Counted from the stretch's first letter, positions 22,539 to 61,331 are shown. The stretch is DNA of 64,000 bases from an uncultured Candidatus Saccharibacteria bacterium (GCA_964427275.1 CAYRSR010000004.1:2769-66768), one strand, 5' to 3'. Notes: a model not told the origin generated them from the sequence alone. Translations and numbers: made by a program.

Positions 22539-22576
22539 AGGAGTAAACAAGGTCGAATACATTGGCAAGCAAATTT

Positions 22577-23380
22577 ATGAAGCAATTACTAAAAATTAGT
22601 TGGTTGGTTGTAGTTTTACTGCTATCAAGCAATCTGGTTCTGGGCTATGGTTATGGCGGAGGACACCGGGTTGAAGATATTAGTGCTCCAGAAATTAGTC
22701 AAATAGAGGTAACTGTTTTTGCAAGTAGTGCCGAGATTAGCTGGCAAACTGATGAATCATCTATTACCTGGTTTAGTTATGGTTTAACTTCTGATTATAC
22801 CGAAGAAATAAAGACTACTGACTACAGTACATCTCATTCAGTAAGCTTAACTGGCCTTTCTCCAAATACTACTTATCATTATCGAATAAAGTCAAAAGAC
22901 CGACATGGAAATATGACCTCTACTTCGGATAGAACTTTTACTACCCTGGAAGAAGAAGAGGAAGTTGAAGAAGAAAAACCGCCAGTAGAAAAGCCAATCA
23001 CTGAAATGACTCTACCCGAGCTTAAAGCCAAGCTGGTTGAATTAACTGAATTAGTTAATAAACTAAGGGCAAAATTATTAGCTCTGGTAGCCAAGAGAGT
23101 TGAAGAAATTCCTTCCGATTATAAATTTGTTACCGATCTTTATTATGGTCAGAGAAGTATTGATGTTAGATATCTTCAGATATTCTTGAAAAGCCAGGGT
23201 CCAGATATTTACCCTGAAGGTTTAGTTACCGGTTATTTTGGTCCATTAACTCGAAGAGCAATAATTAGATTTCAGGAGAAGTATAGAGATGAAATTTTGG
23301 CACCCTGGGGCCTGACTTATGGAACCGGTTTTGTAGGCAGAACTACTAGAGCCAAAATTAATCAGATACTGGGAAGATAA
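22577..23380 (+). CDS. secreted protein: signal peptide, Fn3-like domain, acidic linker, peptidoglycan-binding (PG_binding_1-like) domain
   Basis: MKQLLKISWLVVVLLLSSNLVLG signal peptide; an Fn3-like beta region (ISWQTDE...TTYHYRIKSKD); an EEEEEVEEEK linker; C-terminal YLQIFLKSQG...GYFGPLTRRAIIRFQ PG-binding motif. Confidence 0.55.
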   Translation: MKQLLKISWLVVVLLLSSNLVLGYGYGGGHRVEDISAPEISQIEVTVFASSAEISWQTDESSITWFSYGLTSDYTEEIKTTDYSTSHSVSLTGLSPNTTYHYRIKSKDRHGNMTSTSDRTFTTLEEEEEVEEEKPPVEKPITEMTLPELKAKLVELTELVNKLRAKLLALVAKRVEEIPSDYKFVTDLYYGQRSIDVRYLQIFLKSQGPDIYPEGLVTGYFGPLTRRAIIRFQEKYRDEILAPWGLTYGTGFVGRTTRAKINQILGR

Positions 23381-23405
23381 GTGATAATAAGTAATCATTG
23401 AGCTT

Positions 23406-23445
23406 TAAAACGGCTAATTGTTATTAACAGTTAGCCGTTTTAAAT
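23406..23445 (+). terminator. Rho-independent terminator
   Basis: aaaacggctaa...ttagccgtttt is a perfect 10-bp stem followed by a T/A-rich tail. Confidence 0.65.
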
Positions 23446-23498
23446 TAAGCAAACTTATGGTAAAATAATATTGTAAAGGTCGAAAACATAAAAATTAT

Positions 23499-25853
23499 AT
23501 GCTTAGAAAATTATCAGTTTTACTGATTGGAATTTCGCTGATTTTTAGTTTAGTCCCGGAAATTAATGCTCAAACAGCCGGAGAAACAAATGATACAAAT
23601 TTAATGCTGGATGAGGAAGTTGGCGCTGAAGACCTGGAAATATCCGAGCCAAAGATTTTACCGGATAGCAGGTTATATTTGTTTAAAAATTTTACCAGAG
23701 CAATTAGGAGGTTTTTTACTTTCAGTTCGTTGGCTAAGGCTGAGCTGAATTTAAGATATGCTTCAGAAAAATTGATTGAAGCCGAGAAGCTAGCCCGAAA
23801 AGGAAAGAAGGATTTAGCCGAAAAAGTTTTGGAAAGATATAGCGCCAACTTTGATAAAGCAAAAGAATTACTGGAAAAACAGAAAGATAATCCCAGAGCC
23901 AGAAAGATTCTGGAAAAATTAATTGACCGGGGAATCAAGCACCAGAAAGTTTTAAGTTTAATTCAGAAAAATCTTCCCTTAAATAAATCGGGGAAAATAA
24001 TAGGACTTAAAGCAAAAATAGCTAAACGATTGGGAGAATTTGGAGAAAAAGATCCCGAGAAGCTTAAAGAAATTATTGAGAAACAGAAAGGTTCAAAATT
24101 TAGAAACATTAAAAACATTCAGGTTTTACTAAGAGTAAAAGAACAAGTTCCAGAAGAAGCAAAAGATAAAATAGAAAGTGTAATTGAAAATCAATTAGAA
24201 AAACTTAAGTCCGATTTAGAAGAATTAGCTCCAGAAGAAAGAGAAAAAGTTAAATCCTATCTTCAGAATCTTTCTGGAAATGAAACCAGGTTACTTGAGG
24301 TAATTTCAAGAATAGAGAATTTAGATTTACCCGAGAAAATTCAGGAAAAACTTGGTGAAGCTAAAGAGAAAGTAATTGAAAGATTTGAAAATAGATTGAA
24401 AAAACTTGACGAACAAAATTTAGAAGATTTAAAACAAGAGTTATTTAAACCTTTGGAAGAAGCAGAATTATCTAAGCTGAAAGTAACTAAAGAGCTGATT
24501 AAAAAATTACCGGTTCAAAGAATTGAAAGAATTTTACCTGTTGAACAAAAAATTAAGCAAAAGTTTGCTAAAAAAATTGAACAGCTTTCAGCAGAAAAAA
24601 GAGAAGAATTTGTTCAAAGACTTGGTAGATATCAGGACGTTCAAGGACTAGAAATTTTAAAAGAAATTGAAGAATTTGTTCCTGAAGAAGGAAAAGATGT
24701 TTTGAAAAAAGCTAGAGAAAGAATAAAAACAAGAATCAAAAATGAACTGGAAGAAACTTCAGAATCTGACTTAGGTAGAAAAGTGCAACGAATATTTAAG
24801 AATCGTTTAGAAGGACTGGAAATAGTTGAAGAATTACCAATTTCTTCTCCGGTTAAAGAAAAGACAAAAAAGTTGTTAATTAAAGGAATAGAAAGAAAGC
24901 TTCAGAATGTAGAAGACCCCGAAGAGCTAAACCAGATTAAACAGAGATTGAAAGCTCGAAGAGCAGAGATAAAAAGCATCTCTCCCCAGTTTATCGAGAA
25001 ATTGGAAAGAGCCGAGCGTACGGCTGAAGGAAGAATAACCAAAGAATTGGTTGAGAAAAAGATTGAACAGGCTAAAAAAATGTTTTCAGAATTAAAAGGG
25101 AAGGTTGAGAAATTAACTGATGAACAGAAACAACTACTTCCTAGATATCTTTTCTTAAGTTTAGAATTGATTAAAAAAGAAATAAATCAATCAGTTTCAG
25201 CTTTAGAACAAGGAAAGGTGAAGGTTGCCTTTACTACAATTCAGTCAGTTTTAGGTAGGATAAGAAGTTGTTTTGCTATGCTATTAAGGAGTTTAACAGA
25301 AGTACCACTAGTCCCCGAAAAACCACAACAGCCAGGTAAAAAAATAGTATGTCCAGCTTTATATGACCCAGTTTGTGGGATAGATGGAATAACCTATCCA
25401 AATCGATGTGTAGCAGAAAGAATTCATCGAGTGAAGGTAGCTTATCGAGGAAAATGTAGAGAACAAAAGCTAACCTGCGAGCAAAAGTGTAAGATTTTAG
25501 GTTATCTTAAAGGAACTTGTAGAAGTTATCCTATTTATCCAAGAGCAAGAAAATGTTTGGAAAATGAGATTTATGTTGGTTCTGCTGTTGATTGTCAAGC
25601 GGATACTTCTAAGTTGGGAATTGGTTATGGATGCTGTTGTTTAATTAGAAAGCCTCAAAAGAAGGTTATTGAAGTTCCTAAGCCTGGTTTTATTTCACCC
25701 GAACCAGTTCCAGTAAAGGAATTAATACCATTTTTTGAAAGACCAGTTTCTGAACCAGTTGAAGGGGAAGTAAAATCAATTAAAAAGCCAACAATAAAAG
25801 CTGAACCGATTGAAAAGAAATTGGAACTAGAACCTGAATCTTTATTAGAGTAA
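23499..25853 (+). CDS. secreted coiled-coil protein with C-terminal Kazal-like domain and second Cys-rich module
   Basis: Signal peptide, ~560 aa of K/E-rich heptad coiled coil, then CPALYDPVCGIDGITYPNRC...GKC (Kazal signature PVCGxDGxTYxNxC), then an 8-Cys module and a Pro/Glu-rich tail. Confidence 0.6.
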   Translation: MLRKLSVLLIGISLIFSLVPEINAQTAGETNDTNLMLDEEVGAEDLEISEPKILPDSRLYLFKNFTRAIRRFFTFSSLAKAELNLRYASEKLIEAEKLARKGKKDLAEKVLERYSANFDKAKELLEKQKDNPRARKILEKLIDRGIKHQKVLSLIQKNLPLNKSGKIIGLKAKIAKRLGEFGEKDPEKLKEIIEKQKGSKFRNIKNIQVLLRVKEQVPEEAKDKIESVIENQLEKLKSDLEELAPEEREKVKSYLQNLSGNETRLLEVISRIENLDLPEKIQEKLGEAKEKVIERFENRLKKLDEQNLEDLKQELFKPLEEAELSKLKVTKELIKKLPVQRIERILPVEQKIKQKFAKKIEQLSAEKREEFVQRLGRYQDVQGLEILKEIEEFVPEEGKDVLKKARERIKTRIKNELEETSESDLGRKVQRIFKNRLEGLEIVEELPISSPVKEKTKKLLIKGIERKLQNVEDPEELNQIKQRLKARRAEIKSISPQFIEKLERAERTAEGRITKELVEKKIEQAKKMFSELKGKVEKLTDEQKQLLPRYLFLSLELIKKEINQSVSALEQGKVKVAFTTIQSVLGRIRSCFAMLLRSLTEVPLVPEKPQQPGKKIVCPALYDPVCGIDGITYPNRCVAERIHRVKVAYRGKCREQKLTCEQKCKILGYLKGTCRSYPIYPRARKCLENEIYVGSAVDCQADTSKLGIGYGCCCLIRKPQKKVIEVPKPGFISPEPVPVKELIPFFERPVSEPVEGEVKSIKKPTIKAEPIEKKLELEPESLLE

Positions 25854-25946
25854 TTTTTAGTAATTGGAAGAATCTAGCAATATGTGGTTCACCTTGAGGT
25901 GAGTTTAAGTCTTGAATTGTATTTTTAGTAAAAATATTTTAGAATA

Positions 25947-26561
25947 ATGTCAATGATAAAATCGTTAATATTTGACTTTGGAAACGTAATTTATCCTGAA
26001 AGATGGGACTTAGTTCTGGAAAATTTTCGGGAAGAAATAGATAGAAAAATAACTTCTGAACAGTTTAAATCGGGCTTTAAAAAATTCTGGGACGAATACA
26101 AATGTGGAAGATTAAATACCCAAACTTTTTGGGCTCAGGTCTTAAGTTTTTTAAATTTAAATAATTCATTTCAGAATGTTTGCAAAGCAACTCTTTCATT
26201 TAAGCAAATTTGGAAAAGCCCAGATGAAAAAATAATTAGAATTCTTAGTAAACTAAACTGGGATCATCAGGTGTTTGGATTAACTAATTCATGCTTTGAG
26301 CTGGAAGAAAAGATAGAGCAGGTAAATAAATTATTTAAGAAGGTTTATATGTCTCACCGGGAAGGAATAGCTAAACCAAAGAAAGAATTTTACTTGAAGG
26401 TGATTGAGCAAAATCAATTAAAACCAGAGCAATGTATATTTATCGATGATAAAGAGGGAAATATTAAAGCTGCTAGGAATTTAGGAATAATTGGTATTAG
26501 GTATCAGAATCCGGAGCAACTGCAAACTGAACTTACCAGGTTTAAAATCAAAATAGTATGA
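25947..26561 (+). CDS. HAD-superfamily hydrolase (subfamily IA-like)
   Basis: LIFDFGNVIY motif I with a C-terminal IFIDDKEGNIKAA motif. Confidence 0.65.
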   Translation: MSMIKSLIFDFGNVIYPERWDLVLENFREEIDRKITSEQFKSGFKKFWDEYKCGRLNTQTFWAQVLSFLNLNNSFQNVCKATLSFKQIWKSPDEKIIRILSKLNWDHQVFGLTNSCFELEEKIEQVNKLFKKVYMSHREGIAKPKKEFYLKVIEQNQLKPEQCIFIDDKEGNIKAARNLGIIGIRYQNPEQLQTELTRFKIKIV

Positions 26562-27829
26562 ATAGATTTTTTCAAATTTTTAGAATAAAGGATTTGAGAA
26601 TAAAAGTTTTTAAAATTGCTTTTTTACTTTTAGTGTTTAGATTGATGGCTAATATTCCTATCCCTGGAGTTGACCCGGTTAAGCTTCAGGAATTTTTTTC
26701 AGCAAATCAATTGTTCGGGTTATTTAATGTCTTTGCTGGAGGAACTTTGAGTCAATTATCCATTATTATGCTTGGTTTGGCTCCTTATATTACTGCGGTA
26801 ATCATTTTACAACTACTGACCATAATTTTTCCCAAGTTAAAAGAGATTTATTATGAACAGGGGGCTCAAGGAAGAGCTAAATTTAACAGGTATTCCAGGT
26901 ATTTAACTGTTCCACTGGCTTTTATGCAAGCTTATGGTTTTTTGAACCTATTAGTAGCTCAGGGAGTGATTGATAAACCCAGCTTTCTTCCCTTAATAGT
27001 AAACATTTTAGTAATTACTGCTGGTAGCATGATACTGGTCTGGATTGGTGAGCTGATTACTGAATATAGATTGGGAAATGGAGTATCGTTACTGATTTGT
27101 GCTGGAATTGTAGCCAGGTTTCCGGCAGCAGTTAGGCAGAGCATCCTGAATTATGATCCTTCTATGATACCTACTTACTTTATATTTTTGTTAATGGCTT
27201 TAGTGGTAACTGCCGGTGTGGTTTTTGTTACTGAAGGAGAAAGAAGAATACCGGTATCTTTTGCAAAAAGAGTAAGGGGAACCAGGCTTTATGGAGGAGT
27301 TCAGACCTTTTTACCAATAAGAGTAAATCAAGCTGGAGTAATTCCAATAATTTTTGCTATTTCAGTTTTACTTTTTCCCCAGTTTATAGCTCAAGTTTCT
27401 GCTCTTTTCTCCAAAGATTTCTCAGTTAAATTAAATCAGCTGGTTAATAATTTTTATAGTAATTTATGGATTTACAGTCTAATTTATTTTGCACTGGTAG
27501 TAGTTTTTACTTACTTTTATACTGCAGTAACTTTCGATCCTGAAGAAGTTTCTAAAAATCTTCAGAAAAGTGGTGGATTTATTTTGGGGATTAGGCCAGG
27601 AGCAAGTACTACTGAATTCATTAAAAAAATTGTCAATAGAATCACTTTATTTGGGGCTATATTTTTAGGAATAGTTGCAATTCTTCCTCACTTAGTTAGA
27701 GTATTTACCGGAATAACTGGACTTACTATTGGAGGAACTGCTTTACTGATTGTAGTAGCGGTGAGTCTGGAAATTATGAAACAGGTTGACTCTCAGTTGA
27801 TGATCAGGGAATATGAAGGGATACTTTAA
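26558..27829 (+). CDS. secY: preprotein translocase subunit SecY
   Basis: ANIPIPGVD...GLAPYITAVIILQLL, 10 TM helices, 423 aa. Confidence 0.9.
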   Translation: MNRFFQIFRIKDLRIKVFKIAFLLLVFRLMANIPIPGVDPVKLQEFFSANQLFGLFNVFAGGTLSQLSIIMLGLAPYITAVIILQLLTIIFPKLKEIYYEQGAQGRAKFNRYSRYLTVPLAFMQAYGFLNLLVAQGVIDKPSFLPLIVNILVITAGSMILVWIGELITEYRLGNGVSLLICAGIVARFPAAVRQSILNYDPSMIPTYFIFLLMALVVTAGVVFVTEGERRIPVSFAKRVRGTRLYGGVQTFLPIRVNQAGVIPIIFAISVLLFPQFIAQVSALFSKDFSVKLNQLVNNFYSNLWIYSLIYFALVVVFTYFYTAVTFDPEEVSKNLQKSGGFILGIRPGASTTEFIKKIVNRITLFGAIFLGIVAILPHLVRVFTGITGLTIGGTALLIVVAVSLEIMKQVDSQLMIREYEGIL

Positions 27830-28517
27830 AGCAATAGTTTTATATGGTCCTCCTGGAGCCGGAAAGGGAACTCTGGCTAATCTGTTAGCTCAAAACTATG
27901 ATTTAATTCACTTTGATACTGGTAAATACCTGGAAAATTTATTGTTTTATACTGATTGGTCTAAGTTTTCAAAAAGAGAACAACTGGAGTTTAAAAAGGA
28001 AAAAGAATTATTTGAGAAAGGAATTTTATTAAGTCCGCCATTTGTGTTAAAGGTAGTTAAAAGAAGAGCCGAAAGAATTGCTAAAGCTGGATGGGGAGTT
28101 ATTTTTTCTGGCTCACCACGGACTTTATTTGAGGCATTTGGCGATAAAAGAACCCTGGGACTAATCCCGGTTTTAGAAAGATTATATCAAAAGAAAAATG
28201 TTCTTGTTTTTCAATTAAAAGTAAAGCCACAAACTTCTATAAACAGGAATTTAAATAGACTAATCTGTCCAGTTTGCGGGCAAGTTCCTTTGGGCTTTTA
28301 CAATAAGATTTTGGATAAATGTCCGATTTGTGGAAAGAAGATGGTAAAAAGAAGTGTAGATAGAAGCACTGAGGTAATAAAGGTGAGATTAAAAGAATAT
28401 CAAAATAGAACAAAACCAATTTTAAGAGAACTTAAAAAGAAAGGTTATTCAATTAATAAAATTAATGGTGAACCTTTACCTTATCTGGTTTATCAGCAGG
28501 TCTTGAAGTTTTTATGA
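27813..28517 (+). CDS. adk: adenylate kinase (Zn-lid type)
   Basis: LYGPPGAGKGT P-loop and a CPVCG...CPICG zinc-ribbon lid; sits in the secY-adk-map order. Confidence 0.85.
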   Translation: MKGYFKAIVLYGPPGAGKGTLANLLAQNYDLIHFDTGKYLENLLFYTDWSKFSKREQLEFKKEKELFEKGILLSPPFVLKVVKRRAERIAKAGWGVIFSGSPRTLFEAFGDKRTLGLIPVLERLYQKKNVLVFQLKVKPQTSINRNLNRLICPVCGQVPLGFYNKILDKCPICGKKMVKRSVDRSTEVIKVRLKEYQNRTKPILRELKKKGYSINKINGEPLPYLVYQQVLKFL

Positions 28518-29281: not shown

Positions 29282-29321
29282 AATTGAACTTAGTTTTAAA
29301 AAGTTTTATAATAGTTAAAAA

Positions 29322-29645
29322 GTGATTAAACTTAAGGACTTTCAAAAAATAGAATTAAGAGTAGCCAGAGTTTTAGAAGCTCAAAATATTGAAAATACTC
29401 AGAAATTAATCAGATTGAAAGTTGACTTAGGAGATGAACAAAGGCAGTTGATAGCCGGATTAAGACCAGCTTATCAGGATAAAGATTTGATTGGGAAACA
29501 GGTTATAGTGTTAGTTAATTTAGAACCCAGGCCTATTTTAGGAAATTTAAGTCAGGGTATGCTTTTGGCTGCTATTGATAAAAATGGGAATCCAGTATTA
29601 ATTAGTCCGGAAAGGTCAGTGGATTCAGGTGCGCAGGTGAAATAG
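29322..29645 (+). CDS. tRNA-binding domain protein (CsaA/Myf/EMAP-like)
   Basis: LRVARVLEAQNIENTQKLIRLKVDLGDEQRQLIAGL is an OB-fold tRNA-binding domain as in the MetRS C-terminus. Confidence 0.7.
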   Translation: MIKLKDFQKIELRVARVLEAQNIENTQKLIRLKVDLGDEQRQLIAGLRPAYQDKDLIGKQVIVLVNLEPRPILGNLSQGMLLAAIDKNGNPVLISPERSVDSGAQVK

Positions 29646-29648
29646 ATT

Positions 29649-29879
29649 ATGGAGAAATTAAATAAAACTTTAGTTCATGGTTTTAAGACTTATTATTCTA
29701 GTGATGTTAAAACTGGAATAGATTATCTAAGATATGACCTGGACTATTCTGAAGCCAAGGTATTTTTTAACCAGGCTAGAATTTATGGAAGAGCAAATTT
29801 TGAAGATGATGATGATAGACAGTATGTTCTTATTCATAACTCGGATGGAAGTTACACTTTAAAGAAAAGAGGATATTAA
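29649..29879 (+). CDS. hypothetical protein (76 aa)
   Basis: ORF with no recognisable motif; tightly packed between neighbours. Confidence 0.35.
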   Translation: MEKLNKTLVHGFKTYYSSDVKTGIDYLRYDLDYSEAKVFFNQARIYGRANFEDDDDRQYVLIHNSDGSYTLKKRGY

Positions 29880-29882
29880 ATT

Positions 29883-31825: not shown

Positions 31826-33862
31826 GTGCCTGTACTAACTAAATTAGAACTTGTTGGGTTTAAATCTTTTGCTAGTAAGACTGTTCTGGAATTTCCTAAA
31901 AATATTACAGCTATTGTAGGTCCGAATGGTTCTGGGAAGTCAAATATTACCGATGCAATCTGTTGGGTTTTAGGTGAGAGAGAAGCAAAGCATCTACGTG
32001 GAGAAAGGCTGGAAAATTTAATATTTGCTGGCACTAGACAAAGACCAGCCAGTTCTCTAGCAAAGGTTTCAATTCATTTTGAAAATAGCTCTGGCTTTTT
32101 ACCTTTAGATTTTAAAGAGGTTAATCTGGTTAGAAAGGTTGATCGTTCCAATACTTCTGAATTTTTCATTAATCATGAAAAAGTAACTTTAAATCAACTT
32201 TTAGAAATTTTAGCTAAAGCTAGACTAGGTCCTCGTGGGTTAACTGTGGTTAGACAGGGACAGACAGATGTGTTTATTGCCAGTTTACCAGAACAAAGGA
32301 GAGAAATAATTGAAGAATTTTTAGGACTTAAACAATTCAGGATTAAAAAAAATAAAGCTGAACTACGACTTAAAAGTACTCAGAATAACATAGAAAGGGC
32401 CAAGGCTGTTTTTGAAGAGCTAAAATCTAGATTAAGAGTGCTTCGGCATCAGGCTAATTTATGGGAAAGAAGAAAAAAATTAGAACAACAACTAAAAGAA
32501 TATCAAGATGTTTATTTTGCTTATGAACTAAAAAAACTTAAAGATAAATTTAGGCAAATTGAACCAGAATATCAGGATATTCAGCAAAAAATTAGTTACT
32601 ATAAGCAGGAAATTAAAAAACTGGAAGAGAAAGCCAGACAATTAAATCAACCAAAATTTATCAGTGAAAAGTTGAACAGTTTAGAAAAGCAAGAAAAATT
32701 ATTACTGGACGAACAATCTAAACTTCAAAAAAGACTGTGGCAGCTGGAAGCTGAATTAAAGAGAGAAATTGATCCTAAAGTCTTAGCAAGTTTAATTTCT
32801 CGTGTTAAACAAACTATCAAAGATTGTCTGAAACTAGATGACTTAAAAAGATTAAAGAAGAATTTACTTATATTACTTCAAGAAATCGAACACCAAACTA
32901 AATCAACTCAATATAAAAGTCAACTTAAACAATTGAGTAATCAGACCATTGAACAAATTAATCAGCTTAAACAGGAGTTTTTAAAATTGAAACAAGATAA
33001 GAAAAAGCTAATTTTAGCTCAACAGGAGTATAGTAATAAGATTAGAGATATTTATGAAGCTATGAATCAACAAAGAGAGAAGTTAAATATCTTACTGACT
33101 GAGGAAAATAGACCAATGCTGGAAAAAGAAAGGTTGAATGTGGAGCTGGAAAATTTAAGAAATAGAATTATCCAGGCTGGAAGAAATCTACAGCAAGTTG
33201 AGAATCTTAGTGTTCCTGTAAATCTAGATATCGATCATTTGGAAAGAAAGATTTCCAGATTAACTCAGAAAATTTTGAGTATTGGAGAAGTGGACCAGCT
33301 TATTTTAAAGGAAAAACAGCAGGCTGAAGAGAAATTTAATTTTTTGAATGAACAGTTAAATGATTTAGAAAAGACCTCTGCTGATTTGAAAATTTTGATA
33401 AAACAGCTAGAGCAGAAAATTCAGTTAGATTTCGAGAATAACTTAAATTCAATAAATGAACAGTTAAAAGATTATTTTAGGTTACTTTTTGGAGGGGGGA
33501 AAATTAAACTCTTTTTAGATGAACAGGGTGGAATTGATATTAGCTTGAGATTACCCAGGAAAAAATTCGGTGGCTTAAAAAGTTTATCTGGTGGAGAAAA
33601 AAGCTTGGTATCTCTGGCTATTTTGTTTTCTTTAATTTCTATTTCCCCTCCACCATTTTTAGTTTTGGATGAAGTTGACGCAGCGCTGGATGAGCAAAAT
33701 GTTTTACGTTTTACTCGGCTAGTAAAGCAGGCTTCATTAAATACTCAGTTTATTATTATTACTCATAATCGAGCTACTATGGAAATAGCTGACCTGCTAT
33801 ACGGTGTTTCTATGGGAAAAGACGGAGCGTCTAAAGTATTGAGCTTGAAACTTGAATCATAA
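31826..33862 (+). CDS. SMC-like ATPase, short form without recognisable hinge
   Basis: SMC-type N-terminus (KLELVGFKSFA...IVGPNGSGKSNI Walker A). C-terminal LSGGEKSLVSLAILF signature and LVLDEVDAALD Walker B. ~340 aa of coiled coil in between. 678 aa. Confidence 0.55.
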   Translation: MPVLTKLELVGFKSFASKTVLEFPKNITAIVGPNGSGKSNITDAICWVLGEREAKHLRGERLENLIFAGTRQRPASSLAKVSIHFENSSGFLPLDFKEVNLVRKVDRSNTSEFFINHEKVTLNQLLEILAKARLGPRGLTVVRQGQTDVFIASLPEQRREIIEEFLGLKQFRIKKNKAELRLKSTQNNIERAKAVFEELKSRLRVLRHQANLWERRKKLEQQLKEYQDVYFAYELKKLKDKFRQIEPEYQDIQQKISYYKQEIKKLEEKARQLNQPKFISEKLNSLEKQEKLLLDEQSKLQKRLWQLEAELKREIDPKVLASLISRVKQTIKDCLKLDDLKRLKKNLLILLQEIEHQTKSTQYKSQLKQLSNQTIEQINQLKQEFLKLKQDKKKLILAQQEYSNKIRDIYEAMNQQREKLNILLTEENRPMLEKERLNVELENLRNRIIQAGRNLQQVENLSVPVNLDIDHLERKISRLTQKILSIGEVDQLILKEKQQAEEKFNFLNEQLNDLEKTSADLKILIKQLEQKIQLDFENNLNSINEQLKDYFRLLFGGGKIKLFLDEQGGIDISLRLPRKKFGGLKSLSGGEKSLVSLAILFSLISISPPPFLVLDEVDAALDEQNVLRFTRLVKQASLNTQFIIITHNRATMEIADLLYGVSMGKDGASKVLSLKLES

Positions 33863-33881
33863 ATTTATTATAATAAGCTAG

Positions 33882-34259
33882 ATGTTATCAATTAGATTTT
33901 ATCCAGTAGGGAGAAAACATCAGCGGAGTTATAGGATAGTAGTGGACGAAAAAAGGTCCAAGCTTAAAGGGAAATTTATAGAGGACTTAGGTTGGTATAA
34001 TCCATTTACCAAGCAGTATTCCTTAAAACAGGATAGGTTGAAATTTTTTTTGGGTCACGGTGCTCAGCCAAGTGATACAGTATATAATCTTTTAGTTAGA
34101 GCTGGAGTAATTAAAGGAAAAAAGAGACCAGTGCACAAAAAGAAGAAAGTCAAAGAAGAGACTTCAAAGAAAGAAGTTAAAGCTGAGTCAGAAAAGATTA
34201 CAGAATCTAGCCAGCCTACTCAGGAAACTAAGTCAGAGGAAGTTAAAGAGGCTACTTAA
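33882..34259 (+). CDS. rpsP: 30S ribosomal protein S16 with Lys-rich C-terminal extension
   Basis: MLSIRFYPVGRKHQRSYRIVV...GWYNP. Confidence 0.85.
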   Translation: MLSIRFYPVGRKHQRSYRIVVDEKRSKLKGKFIEDLGWYNPFTKQYSLKQDRLKFFLGHGAQPSDTVYNLLVRAGVIKGKKRPVHKKKKVKEETSKKEVKAESEKITESSQPTQETKSEEVKEAT

Positions 34260-34274: not shown

Positions 34275-34303
34275 TTGACATTAGGTAACTAGATAGTTAT
34301 TAT
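34275..34303 (+). promoter_or_regulatory. sigma70-like promoter TTGACA-17-TATTAT
   Basis: ttgacattaggtaactagatagttattat lies upstream of the KH-domain gene. Confidence 0.55.
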
Positions 34304-34362
34304 TAAGAATGCAGATATTTTAGAATTAAAAGGTCGAAGAGAATAATATTCCTAAATACTGC

Positions 34363-36213: not shown

Positions 36214-36242
36214 TTGCATTTTTAGCTGATTTAATTTATAAT
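36214..36242 (+). promoter_or_regulatory. sigma70-like promoter TTGCAT-17-TATAAT, close to rpsB start
   Basis: The -10 ends 8 nt before the rpsB ATG, so the transcript could be leaderless or have a very short leader. Confidence 0.4.
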
Positions 36243-36250
36243 TTTTAGGT

Positions 36251-36988
36251 ATGATTCAAAAGAAACCTAGTCCAGAGATTTTTGCTGAAATGTGCAAAGC
36301 TGGCTTACTTTATGGATGTCTTAAGAGTCAAACTCATTCTGGTACCAAGCCATTTATTGTTGGCAACTTTAATAACATTGAGATAATTGATTTAGAAATT
36401 ACTCTGAATCACTTAAATGATTTAGTCAGTTTCTTAAAGGATAAGATTTACCCCTCAAAGAGTGAACCAGCCTTAATCCTTCTAGTTGGGACTACTCCAC
36501 CAGCTATCAAAGAAGTGAAAGAATTTGCCCAGCAGTACAAATTTCCCTATATTACTAACAAATGGATAGCTGGTACTCTTACCAATTTCAATCAGATTAG
36601 GAAAAGAATTGATTATTATTTGGAATACAAACAAAAAATAGAAAAAGGGGAACTAAAAAAGTATACTAAAAAAGAGAGATTAAAGATGGAAAGGGAATTT
36701 TTAAAGCTAAAACAGAACTTTGAAAGTTTGGTTGCCTTGAGTAGATTACCGGATATTTTATTTGTGGTTAATCCATTTCAGCATAAGATAGCGGTTTGTG
36801 AAGCAAATAAGATGAATATACCTGTAGTCGGAATAGTTGGAACTAATTTTAATCTTAAAAGATTTGCCTATCCAGTGTTGGCCAACGATTGTTCAAGGGA
36901 GAGTATAAGCTGGATTTTTAGTTATATTAGAAAAAACCTTAAAGAAGGCAGAAAAAAACGGTCTAAAAAGAAAACTGAATCAAAATAA
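36251..36988 (+). CDS. rpsB: 30S ribosomal protein S2
   Basis: LLYGCLKSQTHSGTKPFIVGNFNNIEIIDLE resembles the S2 N-terminus; followed by tsf (the conserved rpsB-tsf pair). Confidence 0.8.
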   Translation: MIQKKPSPEIFAEMCKAGLLYGCLKSQTHSGTKPFIVGNFNNIEIIDLEITLNHLNDLVSFLKDKIYPSKSEPALILLVGTTPPAIKEVKEFAQQYKFPYITNKWIAGTLTNFNQIRKRIDYYLEYKQKIEKGELKKYTKKERLKMEREFLKLKQNFESLVALSRLPDILFVVNPFQHKIAVCEANKMNIPVVGIVGTNFNLKRFAYPVLANDCSRESISWIFSYIRKNLKEGRKKRSKKKTESK

Positions 36989-37834: not shown

Positions 37835-37884
37835 CAAAAGAACTTTAAAGTTGTAAAGGGCGATTATTGTTATTAAATTTTAAA

Positions 37885-38701: not shown

Positions 38702-38777
38702 GCCGGTATAGCTCAGTGGCTAGAGCAACGCTCTTGTAAAGCGTAGGTCGGGGGTTCAAATCCCTCTACCGGCTCCA
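38702..38777 (+). tRNA. tRNA-Thr (TGT)
   Basis: Acceptor GCCGGTA/TACCGGC, anticodon loop CTTGTAA, CCA encoded. Confidence 0.85.
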
Positions 38778-53237: not shown

Positions 53238-53244
53238 AAATTTA

Positions 53245-53284
53245 CCCCGCTAGGTTAACGACAATCTGGCGGGGTTTAATTTTT
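53245..53284 (+). terminator. putative terminator hairpin
   Basis: ccccgc...gcgggg stem with a long loop containing a gttaac palindrome, then a T-rich tail. Confidence 0.35.
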
Positions 53285-53312
53285 ATTGAAATTTATTATC
53301 ATTAAACTAAAA

Positions 53313-55334: not shown

Positions 55335-55541
55335 CTTCGATGAAGAGGGTAATAGGATTCTTTGAATCCTTTCCTAATTTTCTTGGGTAATTTTACTGGT
55401 TTCCCGTTATGTTCAGCAATCCATCTTTGTTTCCCCTGTAAGGGTTCAAAAATATCTCTGGTAGGTGCTTTTTCTTTTTTGCTTTTTCTTTTTTAGTCAT
55501 TGGTCTAATACTAGTGAATTACTATTAAAAAATCAAGGTAT

Positions 55542-55570
55542 TGACATTTGGATTTAAATGATGTATTTTA
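55542..55570 (+). promoter_or_regulatory. sigma70-like promoter TTGACA-17-TATTTT
   Basis: ttgacatttggatttaaatgatgtatttt, followed by the AAAAGGAGG SD before the ATG at 55610. Confidence 0.45.
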
Positions 55571-55609
55571 ACTAAAAATTTGTTCTTTGATAAAAAGGAG
55601 GTTGGTAGA

Positions 55610-56182
55610 ATGAATTTAAAGCAGTTAAAGAAAGAAATTAGTAAGATTAAAATTAGATGGGAGGATAAGGATAGGGTTAGAGAAAAATTACTAGTTCTGG
55701 GTCGGAAGGTAATCAGGCTTTCCGGCAAGGCAATAAAGTTTATTCATAATGGTAACTTAACTAAAGCTGGAGAGTTAATAGAAGAGGCCAAATCTTTGAA
55801 TTTAGCTGCACGCAAGCTTTCTAGAGAATATTCTGACCTGTATTATAATTATACCAAAAATGCTCAAAAGGAGCTGGTGGAAGCGGTAGCTCTAATTTCA
55901 ATTTTGACTGATAGAAATATTCCTACTCGGGATGAATTAAAAGTGGAATGTACTGCATATGCTAATGGGTTAGGAGAAGTAATTGGAGAGTTAAGGAGAT
56001 ATGTTTTAAATTGTTTAAATGAGGGACAATCTGAAAAAGCTCAACAAATTTTTGATTTGATGCAGGAAATCTTTAATATTCTGACAACATTGAATGTTTT
56101 CCCATCTAAGATTAATGGTGGTTTTCGAAGGACAATAGATGTAGCTAGAAATTTGATTGTAAAGACAAAGGAATATTTTTAA
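55610..56182 (+). CDS. translin-family-like helical protein
   Basis: All-helical ~190 aa. Regions such as EAVALISILTD...TAYANGLGEVIGELRRY resemble archaeal/bacterial translin; tentative. Confidence 0.35.
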   Translation: MNLKQLKKEISKIKIRWEDKDRVREKLLVLGRKVIRLSGKAIKFIHNGNLTKAGELIEEAKSLNLAARKLSREYSDLYYNYTKNAQKELVEAVALISILTDRNIPTRDELKVECTAYANGLGEVIGELRRYVLNCLNEGQSEKAQQIFDLMQEIFNILTTLNVFPSKINGGFRRTIDVARNLIVKTKEYF

Positions 56183-56189
56183 TAACTTA

Positions 56190-56216
56190 AGGCAGCTGAA
56201 AAGCTGCCTTTTTAAT
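56190..56216 (+). terminator. Rho-independent terminator
   Basis: aggcagct-gaaa-agctgcct followed by TTTTT. Confidence 0.7.
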
Positions 56217-56256
56217 TTTAAAAAAATAAAATTTATGCTATACTAGAATAGTGTAC

Positions 56257-58509
56257 ATGAAAAAAAGGAGAGTTAAAAAACCCTTTTCAGATTTTTGGTA
56301 CAAAAAATATTTGTCTTCTAGAGATTTTTTGATTATAGAAAATAGTTTTCAAAGAGAACAACAACAAAAGCAGGAAACCATATTTTCTCTAGGGAATGGA
56401 TTTATCTGTTGTAGGGGAACTTTAGAAGAAACTCCGGTTGGTTGTAATCCAGGAACTTATTGGTCTGGTATATATGATCAGCAAGGAGTGCAAGTTACCG
56501 AGATTGTAAATCTTCCCAATCCATTTAAATTTAAAATTAAAGTTAATGGATTAAAATTAAATGTTTCTGAAGGATATTTAAAACACCAAAGGATTTTAGA
56601 TTTAAAAAAATGCGCATTGTTTCGAAAGACTATATTTGATATAAAAAGTCAGCGATTTGATTTCCAGTCCTTAAGGTTTTTAAGTAAATCAAATCCTCAT
56701 TTAGGTGCATTTCAAATATTGTTTACTCCTTTAACTGGCGATGTAACACTTGAAGTAGAAAACTTTATTGATTCTCAAGTTGTAAATCAAAATTCCAAAG
56801 TTTGTCATTTTGAGGTATTAAAATCAATTTCCAGAAAGAACTATGAGTTGTTGCATATTAAAACTCTAGAAGATAGGTATTCGGTCTGCTATGCAGCAGC
56901 ATTAAAGATTAAAAAACAAAATCAGGAACATTTAAATTCTAACAAGCTTTTAAGGTTTAAACTTAAAAAAGGAGAAACTATTAGTTTTACTAAGTTTTTC
57001 TCGATTTATACAACCAGAGAAACTGCAGCTAAAAATCTGGAAGTTTTTGCCAAAGATGACTTAAAGGAAGCTTTAAATACTGGCTTTGAGGAATTATTTT
57101 CTCGACATATTAAATTCTGGAATAAAATCTGGAAAGAGTCGGATTTAAAAATAACTGGGCCATTAAATATCCAGAGAGCTTTAAGGTTTAATATTTATCA
57201 ACATCTGATAGCTGTAGATGAAAGAAATCCTGATATTGGCATACCAGCCAAGGGGTTGACTGGTGAAGGATACAAAGGGCATATTTTCTGGGATGCTGAA
57301 ATATTTAATTTACCATTTTTTGTATTTAATGCTCCGCAAATAGCTAAGAACTTACTGATTTATAGGTACAGTTGCCTAAAAGAAGCCAAAAAAAGAGCTA
57401 AAGATATGGGGTATCAGGGAGCTTTGTTTGGCTGGGAAACAGCTGATAGCGGAAGTGACTGCACTCCCTCCGGAATTCAGGGTGAAGAGATACTTACAGG
57501 TAAGTATGAACAGCATATTTCTGGCGATGTTGCCTTTGGTGTTTACAATTACTTTCGGGCAACTGGTGATGAGCAGTTTATGCTGGACTATGGTCTGGAA
57601 ATTATTTTTGAAACCGCTCGATTTTGGGCTTCCAGATTAACCAGAGGAAAGGACAATTTTTATCACTTAAGTCAAATAATGGGACCAGATGAATTCCATT
57701 TAATTGTGAATGATAACACTTATACCAATTACCTGGCTAAGTGGAATCTATCTATTGCCAGTAGTTTATATAGACAGTTTCTTTTTCACAATCAGTTTGA
57801 AAAGGTTGTTAAAAAAATTGGATTGACAAAAGCAGAAATTGAAGAATGGAATAAAAAAGCTGGAAATATTTTTATTAGTAAAAGACAGGACAGTTTGATT
57901 TTTGATAGCTTTAAAAATTACTCCCGGAAAAAGTATCTTCCAATTAAAAAGAGAAATGAACTGGGATTACCACTTAAGCCGGAACTGAGCTTGAAACAAC
58001 TTGGCAAAACCCAGTTAATCAAACAGCCAGATGTAGTTATGCTATTTTATCTATTTCCAGAACAGTTTGACTTTAAAACTATAAAATCCAACTTTGAATT
58101 TTATGAGCAAAGAACTGTTCATCATTCTTCTCTTTCTGCACCTATCTCTTCTTTGGTAGCTTTATATAGTAAAGATTATTCCAAAGCTAAGTATTACTTT
58201 TTATTAAGTCTTTTTTGCGATTTAAAAGATTTTTATAAAAATACTGTTTCAGGAGTTCATATGGCTTCTTGTGGAGGAGTTTGGCAGGTTATATTTCGCG
58301 GATTTTTAGGAGCAAGGTTTAAAAATGGAAGTTTGGAATTTTGTTCAAATGTTCCTAATTATTTGAAGTCGATAAAAATGAGGTTTAAGTTTAAAGGTAG
58401 AAATTTTGAAATTAAAGCGACTTCAAAAAAGCTAAAAATAAAGTCTTTAAGTAAACTACCAGTCAAAATTGAATCTAAAAAGAATTTTGCCAGAATTAGC
58501 GTTTCTTGA
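56257..58509 (+). CDS. glycoside hydrolase family 65 protein (kojibiose/maltose/trehalose-type phosphorylase)
   Basis: LGNGFICCRGTLEE N-terminal motif and a central (alpha/alpha)6 region (GHIFWDAEIF...). ~750 aa. Confidence 0.75.
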   Translation: MKKRRVKKPFSDFWYKKYLSSRDFLIIENSFQREQQQKQETIFSLGNGFICCRGTLEETPVGCNPGTYWSGIYDQQGVQVTEIVNLPNPFKFKIKVNGLKLNVSEGYLKHQRILDLKKCALFRKTIFDIKSQRFDFQSLRFLSKSNPHLGAFQILFTPLTGDVTLEVENFIDSQVVNQNSKVCHFEVLKSISRKNYELLHIKTLEDRYSVCYAAALKIKKQNQEHLNSNKLLRFKLKKGETISFTKFFSIYTTRETAAKNLEVFAKDDLKEALNTGFEELFSRHIKFWNKIWKESDLKITGPLNIQRALRFNIYQHLIAVDERNPDIGIPAKGLTGEGYKGHIFWDAEIFNLPFFVFNAPQIAKNLLIYRYSCLKEAKKRAKDMGYQGALFGWETADSGSDCTPSGIQGEEILTGKYEQHISGDVAFGVYNYFRATGDEQFMLDYGLEIIFETARFWASRLTRGKDNFYHLSQIMGPDEFHLIVNDNTYTNYLAKWNLSIASSLYRQFLFHNQFEKVVKKIGLTKAEIEEWNKKAGNIFISKRQDSLIFDSFKNYSRKKYLPIKKRNELGLPLKPELSLKQLGKTQLIKQPDVVMLFYLFPEQFDFKTIKSNFEFYEQRTVHHSSLSAPISSLVALYSKDYSKAKYYFLLSLFCDLKDFYKNTVSGVHMASCGGVWQVIFRGFLGARFKNGSLEFCSNVPNYLKSIKMRFKFKGRNFEIKATSKKLKIKSLSKLPVKIESKKNFARISVS

Positions 58510-58542
58510 CCCATTTTTAAATCAGCTTTATAATTCTAGTAT

Positions 58543-59469
58543 ATGAACATCTACGATTTAATAATTATTGGAGGAGGTCCAGCTGGAATTACTGCTGGCA
58601 TTTATGCTGCTAGGCAAAAGCTCAATACATTGTTGATTACCAAAAGTTTTGGTGGCCAGGTAAACAGAAAAGCAGTAGCCATTGAGAATTATCCTGGTTT
58701 TGAAAAAATCTCCGGGAGTGATTTGATAACAAAGTTTGAACAGCAGTTAAGAAAAACTGGAATAGAAATTAGACGAGACGCAGTGGTAAAGGTTAGTTGG
58801 CTGAAGCAAGAGTTTTTAGTAGAAACCAAGACCAAAAATCAATTTAAATCTAAAGCGGTAATTGTTGCTTCTGGTGCAGATCCCAGACCACTGGAAGTTC
58901 CTGGAGAAAAAGAATTCATTGGAAAAGGGGTAAGCTATTGTACTGCCTGTGATGCTCCTTTATATCGAGATAAAACTGTGGCAGTAATTGGTGGGGGGAA
59001 TTCTGGATTTGAAGCAGCAATTGCATTAGCTAATTGGGCTAAGCACATTTATATCCTAGAATTTCTATCTCAGGTTTCAGCTGATGAAATTAATCAAGAG
59101 TTAGTTCAAAAAACTGGAAAAGTGGATGTAATTACTAATGCCAAAGTGGTTGAAATAAAAGGTGATGAATTTGTAAATTCAATTGTTTACCAAGACCGTG
59201 AAACCGGACAATCTAATAGCCTTTCTTTGGATGGAGTATTTATTGAAATTGGTTCTCAGCCAGCTACTTCATTTGTAAAGGACCTGGTAGATTTTAACTC
59301 TAGGGATGAAATTAAAATCGATCCATTTACTAACCAGGCTAAAACTCCAGGATTGTTTGCTGCTGGAGATGTAACTGAAGTTAAATATAAACAAATTGTA
59401 ATTGCCTGCAGTGAAGGTGCAAAAGCTGCTCTTAGCGCTGATAAATATATAAAAAAGTTACTTAGTTAA
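58543..59469 (+). CDS. trxB: thioredoxin reductase-like flavoprotein lacking canonical NADPH 2'-phosphate motif
   Basis: DLIIIGGGPAGITAG FAD site, CTACDA redox CxxC and a second VIGGGNSG Rossmann. The HRRDxFRA box is replaced by YILEFLSQVSAD. Confidence 0.7.
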   Translation: MNIYDLIIIGGGPAGITAGIYAARQKLNTLLITKSFGGQVNRKAVAIENYPGFEKISGSDLITKFEQQLRKTGIEIRRDAVVKVSWLKQEFLVETKTKNQFKSKAVIVASGADPRPLEVPGEKEFIGKGVSYCTACDAPLYRDKTVAVIGGGNSGFEAAIALANWAKHIYILEFLSQVSADEINQELVQKTGKVDVITNAKVVEIKGDEFVNSIVYQDRETGQSNSLSLDGVFIEIGSQPATSFVKDLVDFNSRDEIKIDPFTNQAKTPGLFAAGDVTEVKYKQIVIACSEGAKAALSADKYIKKLLS

Positions 59470-59499
59470 AGGTCGAAAAAGTTGAATTGTCAAAATATT

Positions 59500-59766
59500 A
59501 TGAAAGTTTTAAAATTTGGAGCTAGCTGGTGTGAAGGTTGCAAGGTGATGAAACCAAGGTGGGAAGAAATTGAAAAAGAATATCCCTGGCTGGAAACTAA
59601 ATTCATTAGTATTGATGAACACCCAGAAGCAATGAAAGAATACAAAATTATGAGTCTACCAACTGCTATATTTTTGGATAAACAAAATCAGGAAATAGCC
59701 AGGTTTTCAGGAGAAGTAGAAAAAGAAGTATTGATAAAAGCAATTTTAGAAAATAAGGACAAATAA
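59500..59766 (+). CDS. thioredoxin-like protein (CxxC = WCEGC)
   Basis: LKFGASWCEGCKVM; ~88 aa; immediately downstream of the trxB-like gene. Confidence 0.6.
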   Translation: MKVLKFGASWCEGCKVMKPRWEEIEKEYPWLETKFISIDEHPEAMKEYKIMSLPTAIFLDKQNQEIARFSGEVEKEVLIKAILENKDK

Positions 59767-59778
59767 AATCAACTTCAG

Positions 59779-60468
59779 ATGAACAATTCTAAAAATGATT
59801 ATATTAGATTGTCTCCTTCTACTTTAAACCTGTTTTTAGAATGCAAAAGGTGTTTCTGGCTTCAGGTAAATAAAGGAATTCATCGACCCACAAGCCCTTT
59901 TTCATCTTTACCTGGTGGAATGGATGGGGTAATTAAGAAATATTTTGATAAATACCGATTATTAAATACTTTACCTCCTGAAATCAAAGGAAAAGTTGTT
60001 GGTAGCTTGATGACTGAACTAGAATTACTTAATCAGTGGAGAAACTGGTATACTGGACTAAAGTATATTGATTCAACTAGAAAAGGAATTCTAATTGGAG
60101 CTTTAGATGATTGTCTCAAAGATGGCAAATACTATATTCCAGTTGATTATAAAACCAGAGGTTACCCGCCTTCTCAAAATAGTTCAGAAGAATATTATCA
60201 ACATCAATTAAATTGTTATACTTTCTTATTGAAGCAAAATGGTTATCCGGTAAAGAATTTTGCTTATCTAATTTATTATTATCCCAGGCAAGTTAAAGAG
60301 AATGGAATAGTTGAATTTAATGTGGAGCCAATAAGAATCAAGACCTACCCCGAGCAGGCTAAAAAAGTTTTTGAACAAGCTCTTGATTTATTGAAAGGTG
60401 ACTTGCCAGAAAAACACTCCAAATGCTCTTATTGCAATTGGGCTGGAGATGTTTCTGGATTTGAATAA
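59779..60468 (+). CDS. PD-(D/E)xK nuclease-like protein (Cas4/RecB-like) with 2+2 Cys
   Basis: N-terminal CKRC and C-terminal CSYC; central ILIGALDD...IPVDYKT (D...D-x-K core). Confidence 0.4.
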   Translation: MNNSKNDYIRLSPSTLNLFLECKRCFWLQVNKGIHRPTSPFSSLPGGMDGVIKKYFDKYRLLNTLPPEIKGKVVGSLMTELELLNQWRNWYTGLKYIDSTRKGILIGALDDCLKDGKYYIPVDYKTRGYPPSQNSSEEYYQHQLNCYTFLLKQNGYPVKNFAYLIYYYPRQVKENGIVEFNVEPIRIKTYPEQAKKVFEQALDLLKGDLPEKHSKCSYCNWAGDVSGFE

Positions 60469-60493
60469 AAGGTCGGCTAAAATACAATAATTA

Positions 60494-60934
60494 ATGAAAC
60501 TTACCAGTCCAGCATTTAAAAATAACCAAAATATTCCTGAAAAGTATACCTGCGATGGAGAAAATTTAAGCCCGCCTTTGTTTATATCTGATATTCCGGT
60601 AGGTACTGAAAGCCTGGTTTTAATTGTAGATGATCCCGATGCTCCATCAGGATGCTTTGTTCATTGGACGTTATGGAATATTTCACCCCAAACTACAGAA
60701 ATTCCAGAAGGCAAGATACCTGAGAATGCGATTGAGGGAATAACTGATTTTGGAAAACCTGGTTATGGTGGTCCTTGTCCTCCTTCTGGGATCCATCGAT
60801 ATTTTTTTAAGATTTATGCTTTAGATACCAGACTAGAGCTTGATTCCTCAGCAACTAAAGAGGATATTGAAGAAGTAATGGAAGGACATATTCTGGAGAA
60901 AGCCGAGTTAATTGGTTTATACCAGCGTAAGTAG
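60494..60934 (+). CDS. YbhB/YbcL-family PEBP (Raf kinase inhibitor-like) protein
   Basis: LIVDDPDAP...HWTLWNI...GYGGPCPPSGIHRYFFKIYALD PEBP signature. Confidence 0.8.
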   Translation: MKLTSPAFKNNQNIPEKYTCDGENLSPPLFISDIPVGTESLVLIVDDPDAPSGCFVHWTLWNISPQTTEIPEGKIPENAIEGITDFGKPGYGGPCPPSGIHRYFFKIYALDTRLELDSSATKEDIEEVMEGHILEKAELIGLYQRK

Positions 60935-60964
60935 ATTAAATATTTTTTTTGTGGTAAAATTAAA

Positions 60965-61300
60965 TTGATGATTAATATTGAAATTAAAGTTCGGCAATTA
61001 TCTAAAACTAATACCACTACAACTTTTGAGGTAAATATCATTACTGGAGAAACTCAAACTAAACACCTGGTTTACTTAGATAATGCTGATTATCAGGAGT
61101 TAACTGCTGGTAAGATAACTCCCGAGGAATTGGTTAGAAAAACAATGGAATTCTTACTTCAAAAGAAACCTAAAGAGTCAATTTTAAGAGAGCTTGATAT
61201 TGGTCAGATATCTGGCTACCTTCCTGAGTATCCAGAGCAAGTTAAAGAGTGGCTGAAAGATTTACCTGCGACCGAAGATGATTTGTCTTCAACCAGATAG
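60965..61300 (+). CDS. hypothetical protein (111 aa)
   Basis: ORF with no recognisable motif. Confidence 0.3.
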   Translation: MMINIEIKVRQLSKTNTTTTFEVNIITGETQTKHLVYLDNADYQELTAGKITPEELVRKTMEFLLQKKPKESILRELDIGQISGYLPEYPEQVKEWLKDLPATEDDLSSTR

Positions 61301-61331
61301 TTCGGAAAGGTCGGAATAATTTATCTGCTAA

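Follow-up and report, generated by a model that had tools for sequence, protein, structure and literature searches.

Control of a regulator through the leader of its own mRNA is a common design. A KH domain contacts about 4 nt of RNA, and two KH domains would fit an 8-mer. KhpA and KhpB are reported to co-purify with tRNAs in other bacteria. Here we describe a short sequence motif, the 8-mer AAAGGTCG, in a 64,000-nucleotide stretch of DNA (GCA_964427275.1 CAYRSR010000004.1:2769-66768, recorded as an uncultured Candidatus Saccharibacteria bacterium; referred to as the window throughout), where it stands in the leaders of khpA and several other genes. KhpA and KhpB are global RNA-binding proteins that are kept in reduced genomes, and their sequence preference is undefined (10.1101/2023.10.30.564711). 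Regulation in the uncultivated, minimal-genome Patescibacteria (Candidate Phyla Radiation, CPR) is almost unstudied, and the motif offers a defined cis-element for tests in vitro.

Other described signals resemble parts of this arrangement. The operator of CtsR in Firmicutes consists of tandem A/GGTCAAA heptads, 3 nt apart. The STAB-SD of Gram-positive bacteria is reportedly a 5'-proximal stabiliser of mRNA. Literature searches with the sequence itself and for promoter and translation signals of CPR bacteria returned nothing relevant, and we regard the motif as a genuine, selected and previously undescribed leader element.

Results

The exact 8-mer AAAGGTCG occurs five times in the window (starts at 23475, 34329, 59468, 60468 and 61306), always on the plus strand. 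Shuffling of the window gave an expectation of 0.88 copies, and five or more copies were reached in none of 100 shuffles. The 7-mer AAGGTCG was found six times on the plus strand and not once on the minus strand; the sixth copy reads cAAGGTCGAA (22548-22557). All six are intergenic copies on the coding strand. The next ATG downstream (22577, 23499, 34363, 59500, 60494 and 61332, respectively) follows 23-33 nt after the start of the motif and 14-24 nt after the end of the 10-mer. An unbiased k-mer scan ranked AAGGTCG as the most enriched 7-mer upstream of the open reading frames (ORFs) of the window (6 observed versus 0.21 expected, p 9e-8), level in count with the Shine-Dalgarno (SD) sequence AAGGAGG, which was found before six other genes. 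The recurrent coding-strand motif proposed in the first-pass annotation of this DNA is thus real. Its coordinates were right except for two, which we place at 61305-61315 (given as 61295-61305) and 37855-37863 (given as 37853), and the copy given at 22550 lacks the first A.

The copy with the deepest conservation is that of khpA, which follows rpsP and encodes a KH-domain RNA-binding protein (PF13083, E 6e-20). The exact AAAGGTCG was present in the khpA leader in seven of seven independent lineages examined, which comprise the window, four metagenomic lineages (KhpA 69-81% identical), one lineage whose KhpA is named Jorgensenbacteria at NCBI and Harrisonbacteria GCA_001818015.1. Over 48 nt of aligned leader, the 8-mer was the sole conserved block; otherwise a single isolated A was invariant and the flanks were unconserved. 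By our own composition-based estimate, the chance of finding the 8-mer in a 170-nt khpA upstream region is about 0.002 per lineage. In one further locus (L168, JGI Ga0187538_168523), both KhpA and the rpsP-khpA spacer are identical, whereas S16 has 100 aa versus 125 aa and the upstream neighbour is another one; this is a local rearrangement in a closely related strain or species. Another of the sampled loci (L169) carries AAGGTCG in the last codons of rplJ at 12364, 70 nt before the start of rplL, which is the sole upstream-oriented copy there besides that of khpA.

A second footprint was found before an SDR gene, where six genomes have the exact motif upstream of the orthologue, between diverged flanks. 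Two of them have it in the last codons of the upstream ORF, where it is read K-G-R. Moreover, one relative (L162), with a PD-(D/E)XK protein of 93% identity, has kept AAAGGTCGG at the stop of this gene, while the stop itself has changed from TAA to TGA and the spacer has changed as well. The orthologous upstream regions of trxB-trx and PEBP in relatives were uninformative, since synteny is not conserved.

The window has a G+C content of 32-33%. Proteins of metagenome-assembled genomes of Candidatus Nealsonbacteria and other Patescibacteria share at most 71% identity with its thioredoxin reductase, and its DUF5667/Kazal and Fn3/PG-binding proteins fit a Patescibacteria origin. For comparison we used about 80 trxB-centred loci (1.2 Mb) of related Nealsonbacteria-like Patescibacteria. 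Genes were called by a simple longest-ORF heuristic with manual start corrections. In these relatives, AAGGTCG was the top G/C-containing 7-mer at -50 to -15 (14 observed versus 1.6 expected, p 2.5e-9), and the canonical SD AAGGAGG was separately enriched at -18 to -2. Among 420 composition-matched permutations AAGGTCG came first for upstream placement, with 15 of 108 occurrences compared to a baseline of 2.2%. Elsewhere in the loci it occurred about as often as composition predicts, hence it is placed in leaders rather than avoided in other regions.

The motif is also strict. The exact 7-mer alone was enriched in relatives (22 observed versus 2.3 expected), and none of its 21 single-mismatch variants was significantly so. 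Two transitions were slightly raised, AAGGTTG (7 versus 4.3) and AAGGTCA (5 versus 2.5), and both are found at orthologous positions before the SDR and ferredoxin genes. Such strictness argues for direct, base-specific recognition. No second conserved block was found on either side of the motif, and the 16-41 nt between motif and ATG are 88% A+T. Overall, the motif is a selected and strictly defined element that occurs in the sense orientation only. Enrichment and conservation together rule out an origin by chance or composition, to which we leave virtually no room. About 10% of the genes in the Nealsonbacteria-like lineage of the window, which is that of a groundwater bacterium with a tiny genome, carry it, and the distinct gene class with a conserved 5'-leader element, as suggested earlier, is supported.

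Several searches for a known identity gave no match. In Rfam 15, only tRNAs reached the gathering score in the window, and nothing credible appeared at E values up to 1 around the motif copies. Upstream of tRNA genes the motif was found in 0 of 47 cases, too few for statistical power. The shorter AGGTCG forms the junction of variable loop and T-stem in many tRNAs (window positions 38745 and 38845, as well as 11 of the 47 tRNA genes in the loci), and none of them contains the full AAGGTCG. This resemblance may or may not be meaningful.

All transcription starts given in the following are predictions from promoter consensus. In 9 of 27 instances, AAGGTCG is preceded by a strong -10 hexamer whose first base lies 9-15 nt upstream, compared to 5.1% of controls matched for ATG distance (p 5e-6). 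When k-mers just 3' of -10 boxes were collected de novo, AAGGT, AGGTCG and AAGGTCG were the sole G/C-containing matches. A full TTGACx-16/17-TAnnnT promoter or a TGn extended -10 was found at 22510-22538 and 23458-23466 in the window and in three relatives (L047, L050 and L060). Hence, many genes have the start of the motif no more than about 3 nt from the predicted 5' end of their transcript. The gap between -10 box and motif is 3-10 nt in these cases and does not follow a fixed rule. In the khpA leaders the motif lies at about +3 (L171), at +8 (L169 and L176), at +19 in the window, where khpA has the consensus promoter TTGACA-17-TATTAT (34275-34303), and at +50 to +57 (L172 and L170).

For the copies at 59468, 60468 and 61306, no credible promoter was found between the motif and the upstream gene. 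Two of them (59468 and 60468) touch the TAA stop of that gene, so that the motif is not confined to transcript 5' ends. The earlier placement near the 5' end is supported where a sigma-70-type promoter can be recognised; there the motif often lies only a few nucleotides from the predicted start. One explanation for this double occurrence would be recognition or cleavage by an endoribonuclease, by which cut polycistronic mRNAs would get the same 5' end as primary transcripts; the same sequence is indeed seen at predicted primary 5' ends and right after stops within operons. However, the khpA leaders of L170 and L172 are monocistronic and have the motif in their interior, and we know of no bacterial mRNA-processing RNase that is specific for an 8-mer. 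A processing site is thus highly unlikely in our opinion.

The stretch from motif to start codon avoids ATG triplets, with 1-2 of 25 instances versus 6.6 expected (P ~0.015), as would be expected if this stretch is transcribed. Together with the predicted upstream promoters, the avoidance suggests that the motif is part of the transcript. In relatives, the ATG follows 22-48 nt after the start of the motif (median 33 nt). The motif thus keeps no fixed distance to the promoter or to the start codon. A translation-initiation signal set relative to the start codon, as considered in the first-pass annotation, is not supported in this form: the distance ranges from 33 to 71 nt across khpA orthologues, and some leaders have an SD-like sequence in addition.

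A promoter element of an alternative sigma factor was another early suggestion, in the form of a -10-like box. As a -35 or -10 element of leaderless or short-leader transcripts the motif would match the heavy use of leaderless promoters in this clade, its median distance to the ATG (33 nt) is close to a -35 position, and one copy in the window can be read within a TTGAAT-16-TACAAT promoter. Nevertheless, no second block exists at any fixed spacing, no more than 11% of instances are followed by a -10 box at 16-18 nt, and the ATG may be anywhere from 22 to 71 nt away. Moreover, predicted canonical promoters lie upstream of the motif, with a gap of 3 to about 60 nt between their -10 box and the motif, and the putative TTGAAT-16-TACAAT promoter is not conserved in L162. 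We consider this explanation largely refuted and give it a very slim chance. A -35 box of leaderless promoters was rejected on the same grounds, namely the missing partner at fixed spacing and the variable ATG distance, and boxes of the ECF, sigma-28, sigma-H or sigma-B-like type were rejected for lack of a partner block up- or downstream.

The six copies of the window differ in their surroundings. The first, cAAGGTCGAA at 22548-22557, lies in the leader of an Fn3/PG-binding protein gene identified by Pfam matches (ATG 22577), downstream of TTGACA (22510-22515) and, after 17 nt, TAATTT (22533-22538); transcription is predicted to start 1-3 nt before the motif. The second, AAAGGTCGAA at 23475-23484, belongs to the DUF5667/Kazal protein gene (ATG 23499) and is part of its leader. 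Here the promoter scan matched an extended -10, TGGTAAAAT (23458-23466), that ends 8 nt upstream of the motif. The two genes are separated by an inverted repeat, AAAACGGCTAA...TTAGCCGTTTT, located at 23407-23441 on the 3' side of the Fn3/PG-binding gene. We read it as an intrinsic terminator, although it was not called by the terminator scan, and on this reading the 35 nt that follow must contain a separate promoter for the Kazal gene.

The third copy, at 34329-34338, is the AAAGGTCGAA of the khpA leader (ATG 34363) conserved in the seven lineages. The fourth, the same 10-mer at 59468-59477, shares two bases with the TAA stop of trxB (59467-59469) and ends 22 nt before the thioredoxin ATG at 59500. 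The fifth, AAAGGTCGGC at 60468-60477, begins at the final base of the stop of the PD-(D/E)XK gene, 16 nt before the PEBP ATG at 60494. The last, AAAGGTCGGA at 61306-61315, follows 5 nt past the TAG stop (61298-61300) of a 110-aa ORF and stands 16 nt before the ATG (61332) of a 70-aa ORF.

Two further sites on the plus strand are less certain. The sequence AAAGGGCGA at 37855-37863, before a ferredoxin-like ORF (ATG 37885), had been listed as a near-identical copy, which is doubtful. Ferredoxin orthologues in three relatives (L003, L028 and L045) have AAAGGTTTG or AAAGGTCA upstream, and membership of the variant AAAGGGCG in the motif class is unsupported, with AAGGGCG observed 3 times in relatives versus 3.0 expected. 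The other site, AAAGGTCA at 29611-29618, lies 38 nt before an ATG (29649) and within the end of the upstream ORF. Its form, AAGGTCA, is the weakly enriched transition mentioned above, and its membership is uncertain.

A simple classification of the approximately 69 genes of the window gave about 25 translationally coupled, about 20 leaderless-type, 6 SD-led and 6 motif-led genes, with the rest unclassified. At least four start-site architectures thus stand side by side, with AAAGGTCG-led genes as one of them, and this matters for gene calling and for the interpretation of metatranscriptomes. In leaderless-type genes, a TAnnnT -10 box precedes the ATG by 10-16 nt, and TTGACx frequently stands a further 17 nt upstream. 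Examples are found at 58506-58545 (trxB), 60953-60970, 33860-33884 and 36230-36253; the promoter of trxB reads TTGACC-17-TATAAT-8-ATG, with its boxes spanning 58506-58534. Over 953 genes of related loci, TAnnnT hexamers show a sharp peak 12-14 nt before the ATG, and -10 boxes that close to the start codon imply leaderless mRNAs. The clade thus appears to use such mRNAs heavily. The peak corresponds to the 'group C' pattern of GeneMarkS-2 (PMC6028130). Since most genes of the window have no SD, its absence, which had been proposed as a feature of the motif class, does not distinguish that class.

The five AAGGAGG genes named in the first-pass annotation were confirmed (35578, 49471, 50207, 52404 and 55610). 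These genes with a strong AAAGGAGG SD are few, lie mostly at 49-56 kb and encode a HAD hydrolase, an M50 peptidase, a Translin-like protein and proteins of unknown function. Coding strand and skew of the window change within 40-56 kb, the same stretch in which the SD genes cluster. The protein encoded at 55610-56182 matches the Translin family in Pfam (E 1.6e-9, above the curated cut-off). To our knowledge, a Translin-family protein would be unusual for a bacterium.

The motif is not a canonical SD itself, which is excluded by its spacing (14-64 nt), its strictness and its weak duplex energy. Using RNAduplex with the anti-SD GAUCACCUCCUUUCU, which is the canonical sequence and may differ from the clade's own 16S, AAAGGUCGAA gave -4.7 kcal/mol and the local SD AAAGGAGGUG gave -14.9 kcal/mol. 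Pairing runs through AAAGG only, and the invariant UCG is not involved. A different kind of contact with rRNA may be considered, in which the motif would serve as a ribosome-anchoring or standby site, or as a 5' stabiliser, by pairing with an exposed segment (5'-CGACCUUU-3'-like or the CCUUU tail of 16S). The small subunit would be held on an A+U-rich leader without SD and would either find the first AUG from there or block 5'-to-3' decay, similar to the STAB-SD in Bacillus.

Several properties of the leaders would agree with pairing to rRNA. The motif starts with AAAGG as do the local SDs (AAAGGAGG), the 16-41 nt that follow it are 88% A+U, and the start codon is the first AUG after it in at least 23 of 25 cases. 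It is often a few nucleotides from the predicted 5' end, its invariance across lineages would fit a conserved rRNA partner, and those changes that it tolerates, C to U and G to A transitions, are partly wobble-compatible. In addition, Parcubacteria have an unusual anti-SD status and a conserved h26 (PMC9297842). On the other hand, the canonical anti-SD duplex is weak (-4.7 versus -14.9 kcal/mol) and leaves out the UCG, the spacing to the AUG varies over 14-64 nt, the motif lies about 50-57 nt from the predicted 5' end in L170 and L172, and the same genomes use canonical SDs at normal spacing. No 16S rRNA of the clade was found in the loci checked, which were those sampled first. Pairing with rRNA is the strongest of the alternatives at the RNA level; in view of both sides, we think it unlikely that it explains the motif.

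Other pairing partners were looked for as well. Pairing in cis with the start of the own coding sequence was hinted at by folds and was rejected, as duplex energies equalled those of controls (p 0.24). The search for an RNA partner in trans returned, in the sampled DNA, intergenic CGACCTT only as the motif on the other strand, in tRNA or in hairpins.

Hairpins and repeats at the position of the motif were seen in some relatives. In L014 and L040 the SDR orthologue lacks the motif, and the leader begins with a small hairpin, AATCGgaattaaaaCGATT, directly after the TATAAT box, which hints that 5'-proximal elements are interchangeable. A second hairpin, TATAGCGAC-N15-GTCGCTAT, is conserved on the minus strand in a lineage of 43% G+C (L014:~480-560, L017:~3565-3645 and L040:~200-280). 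Its 3' arm contains AAAAAGGTCG, about 31 nt before the ATG of a protein starting with MEFKKF, and the motif is thus embedded in the stem. In Staskawiczbacteria, tandem AAAGGTTAA units about 13 nt apart precede an orthologous gene (L037:~9040-9098 and L044:~2830-2874); they may represent a lineage-specific variant of the motif or a different direct-repeat element. Finally, the motif is part of a perfect palindrome in L010 (TCAAGGTCGGACCTTGA, 9061-9077), 43 nt ahead of a gene start.

The palindromic copy in L010 (TCAAGGTCGGACCTTGA) and the tandem AAAGGTTAA in L037 and L044 would suit a DNA operator, most likely one for a repressor that binds at or just past the transcription start of a regulon. 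This reading could also account for the overlap with the predicted +1 region of many sigma-70-type promoters and for the conservation before the same orthologues (khpA, SDR and ferredoxin), and the motif resembles the CtsR heptad A/GGTCAAA. However, it is a single asymmetric 8-mer without a second half-site, and all upstream copies point the same way relative to their genes. Some copies are intercistronic without a promoter, others lie 50-60 bp downstream of the khpA promoter, and the avoidance of ATG downstream indicates a transcribed region. For the copies at 59468 and 60468, which have no usable promoter, neither a DNA operator nor a promoter box provides an explanation. A tandem operator of the CtsR type was rejected separately: the six window copies have no second heptad beyond A-richness and no conserved downstream column. 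The regulon operator was the closest of the options proposed earlier, but the evidence favours recognition on RNA and not on DNA. An operator on DNA is in our view decidedly unlikely.

Discussion

Our data show a motif that is sense-only in every upstream copy of the window and of the relatives, apparently transcribed, strict, conserved before orthologues, independent of promoter and start codon, and also present between cistrons. From this anatomy and conservation, we infer that it is recognized on RNA by a trans-acting factor. We propose that AAAGGUCG (as RNA 5'-AAAGGUCGAA-3') would be a short linear element on the sense strand of mRNA leaders, read by a sequence-specific factor that would control the mRNA post-transcriptionally, at the level of translation, stability or both. 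A leader site read by a protein, with KhpA/KhpB placed first as the reader, is the explanation that we tentatively favour.

KhpA is the prime candidate, as conservation is deepest for the copy in the khpA leader. In the simplest model KhpA, probably together with KhpB, would bind the 8-mer and autoregulate its own mRNA, either by repression or by activation. In the Nealsonbacteria-like lineage the site would then have been recruited to about 10% of the genes, including those of thioredoxin, PEBP, SDR, ferredoxin, Hsp20 and surface or membrane proteins. That KhpA/KhpB specifically read AAAGGUCG, with autoregulation through the own leader in every lineage examined and a post-transcriptional regulon of about one tenth of the genes, is a possibility that we place on the unlikely side.

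Some observations weigh against a protein-read site with KhpA as its reader. The motif is not predicted to be more accessible in its leaders, with a mean unpaired probability of 0.47 in native versus 0.58 in shuffled ones. The genes that carry it have no obvious function in common, and trmD is co-transcribed downstream of khpA. Within about 20 kb, the sampled khpA lineages other than the window have hardly any upstream copy besides that of khpA, and a broad regulon may be restricted to the lineage of the window. The sampled loci are the neighbourhoods of trxB, PEBP, PD-(D/E)XK and khpA, not whole genomes, and some of them are closely related to one another. Moreover, the link to KhpA comes only from the place of the most conserved copy, and another conserved factor could read the motif.

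An invariant 8-mer at the same gene across candidate phyla, and before about 10% of the genes in one lineage, deserves attention whichever factor reads it. If KhpA/KhpB do so, their recognition specificity becomes directly testable with synthetic RNA and recombinant protein. The motif would then be the first defined binding motif for this widespread bacterial RNA-binding protein, and its use the first gene-regulatory circuit described in uncultivated, minimal-genome Patescibacteria.

Comparison with known systems

The motif shares with the SD sequence that it is purine-rich, starts with AAAGG, lies on the mRNA strand and precedes first as well as internal cistrons. It differs in its distance to the start codon (14-64 nt versus about 5-10 nt), in pairing to the anti-SD over only about 5 bp and in not tolerating partial variants, whereas the SD is degenerate and functions with any 4-6 nt of its consensus, and true SDs coexist with it. 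The STAB-SD is similar in that the motif is SD-like at its beginning and often lies at a large distance from the start codon but only a few nucleotides from the predicted 5' end, and some related lineages have a 5' hairpin at the equivalent place. In contrast to the STAB-SD, the motif is weakly complementary to 16S rRNA, not always 5'-proximal and also intercistronic.

The CtsR operator has a similar core (GGTCAAA compared to GGTCGAA) and is likewise located near transcription starts, and one motif target is an Hsp20 gene (L060). However, the motif is single instead of tandem, has non-clp targets, occurs within operons and deep in leaders and belongs to another lineage. Leaderless-type promoters (GeneMarkS-2 group C, PMC6028130) are present in the same genomes, as seen from the -10 peak, and the motif class represents an alternative arrangement, since the motif is no -10 or -35 box and its genes have leaders of 20-70 nt.

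The linear leader sites recognized by CsrA (GGA) and those used in autoregulation by ribosomal and other RNA-binding proteins are also short sense motifs that occur in several mRNAs, among them the leader of an RNA-binding protein, and have drifting flanks. The motif described here differs from them in having GGU instead of GGA, in being one strict 8-mer where these systems use multiple degenerate sites, in not overlapping the SD and in that its binder is a putative one.

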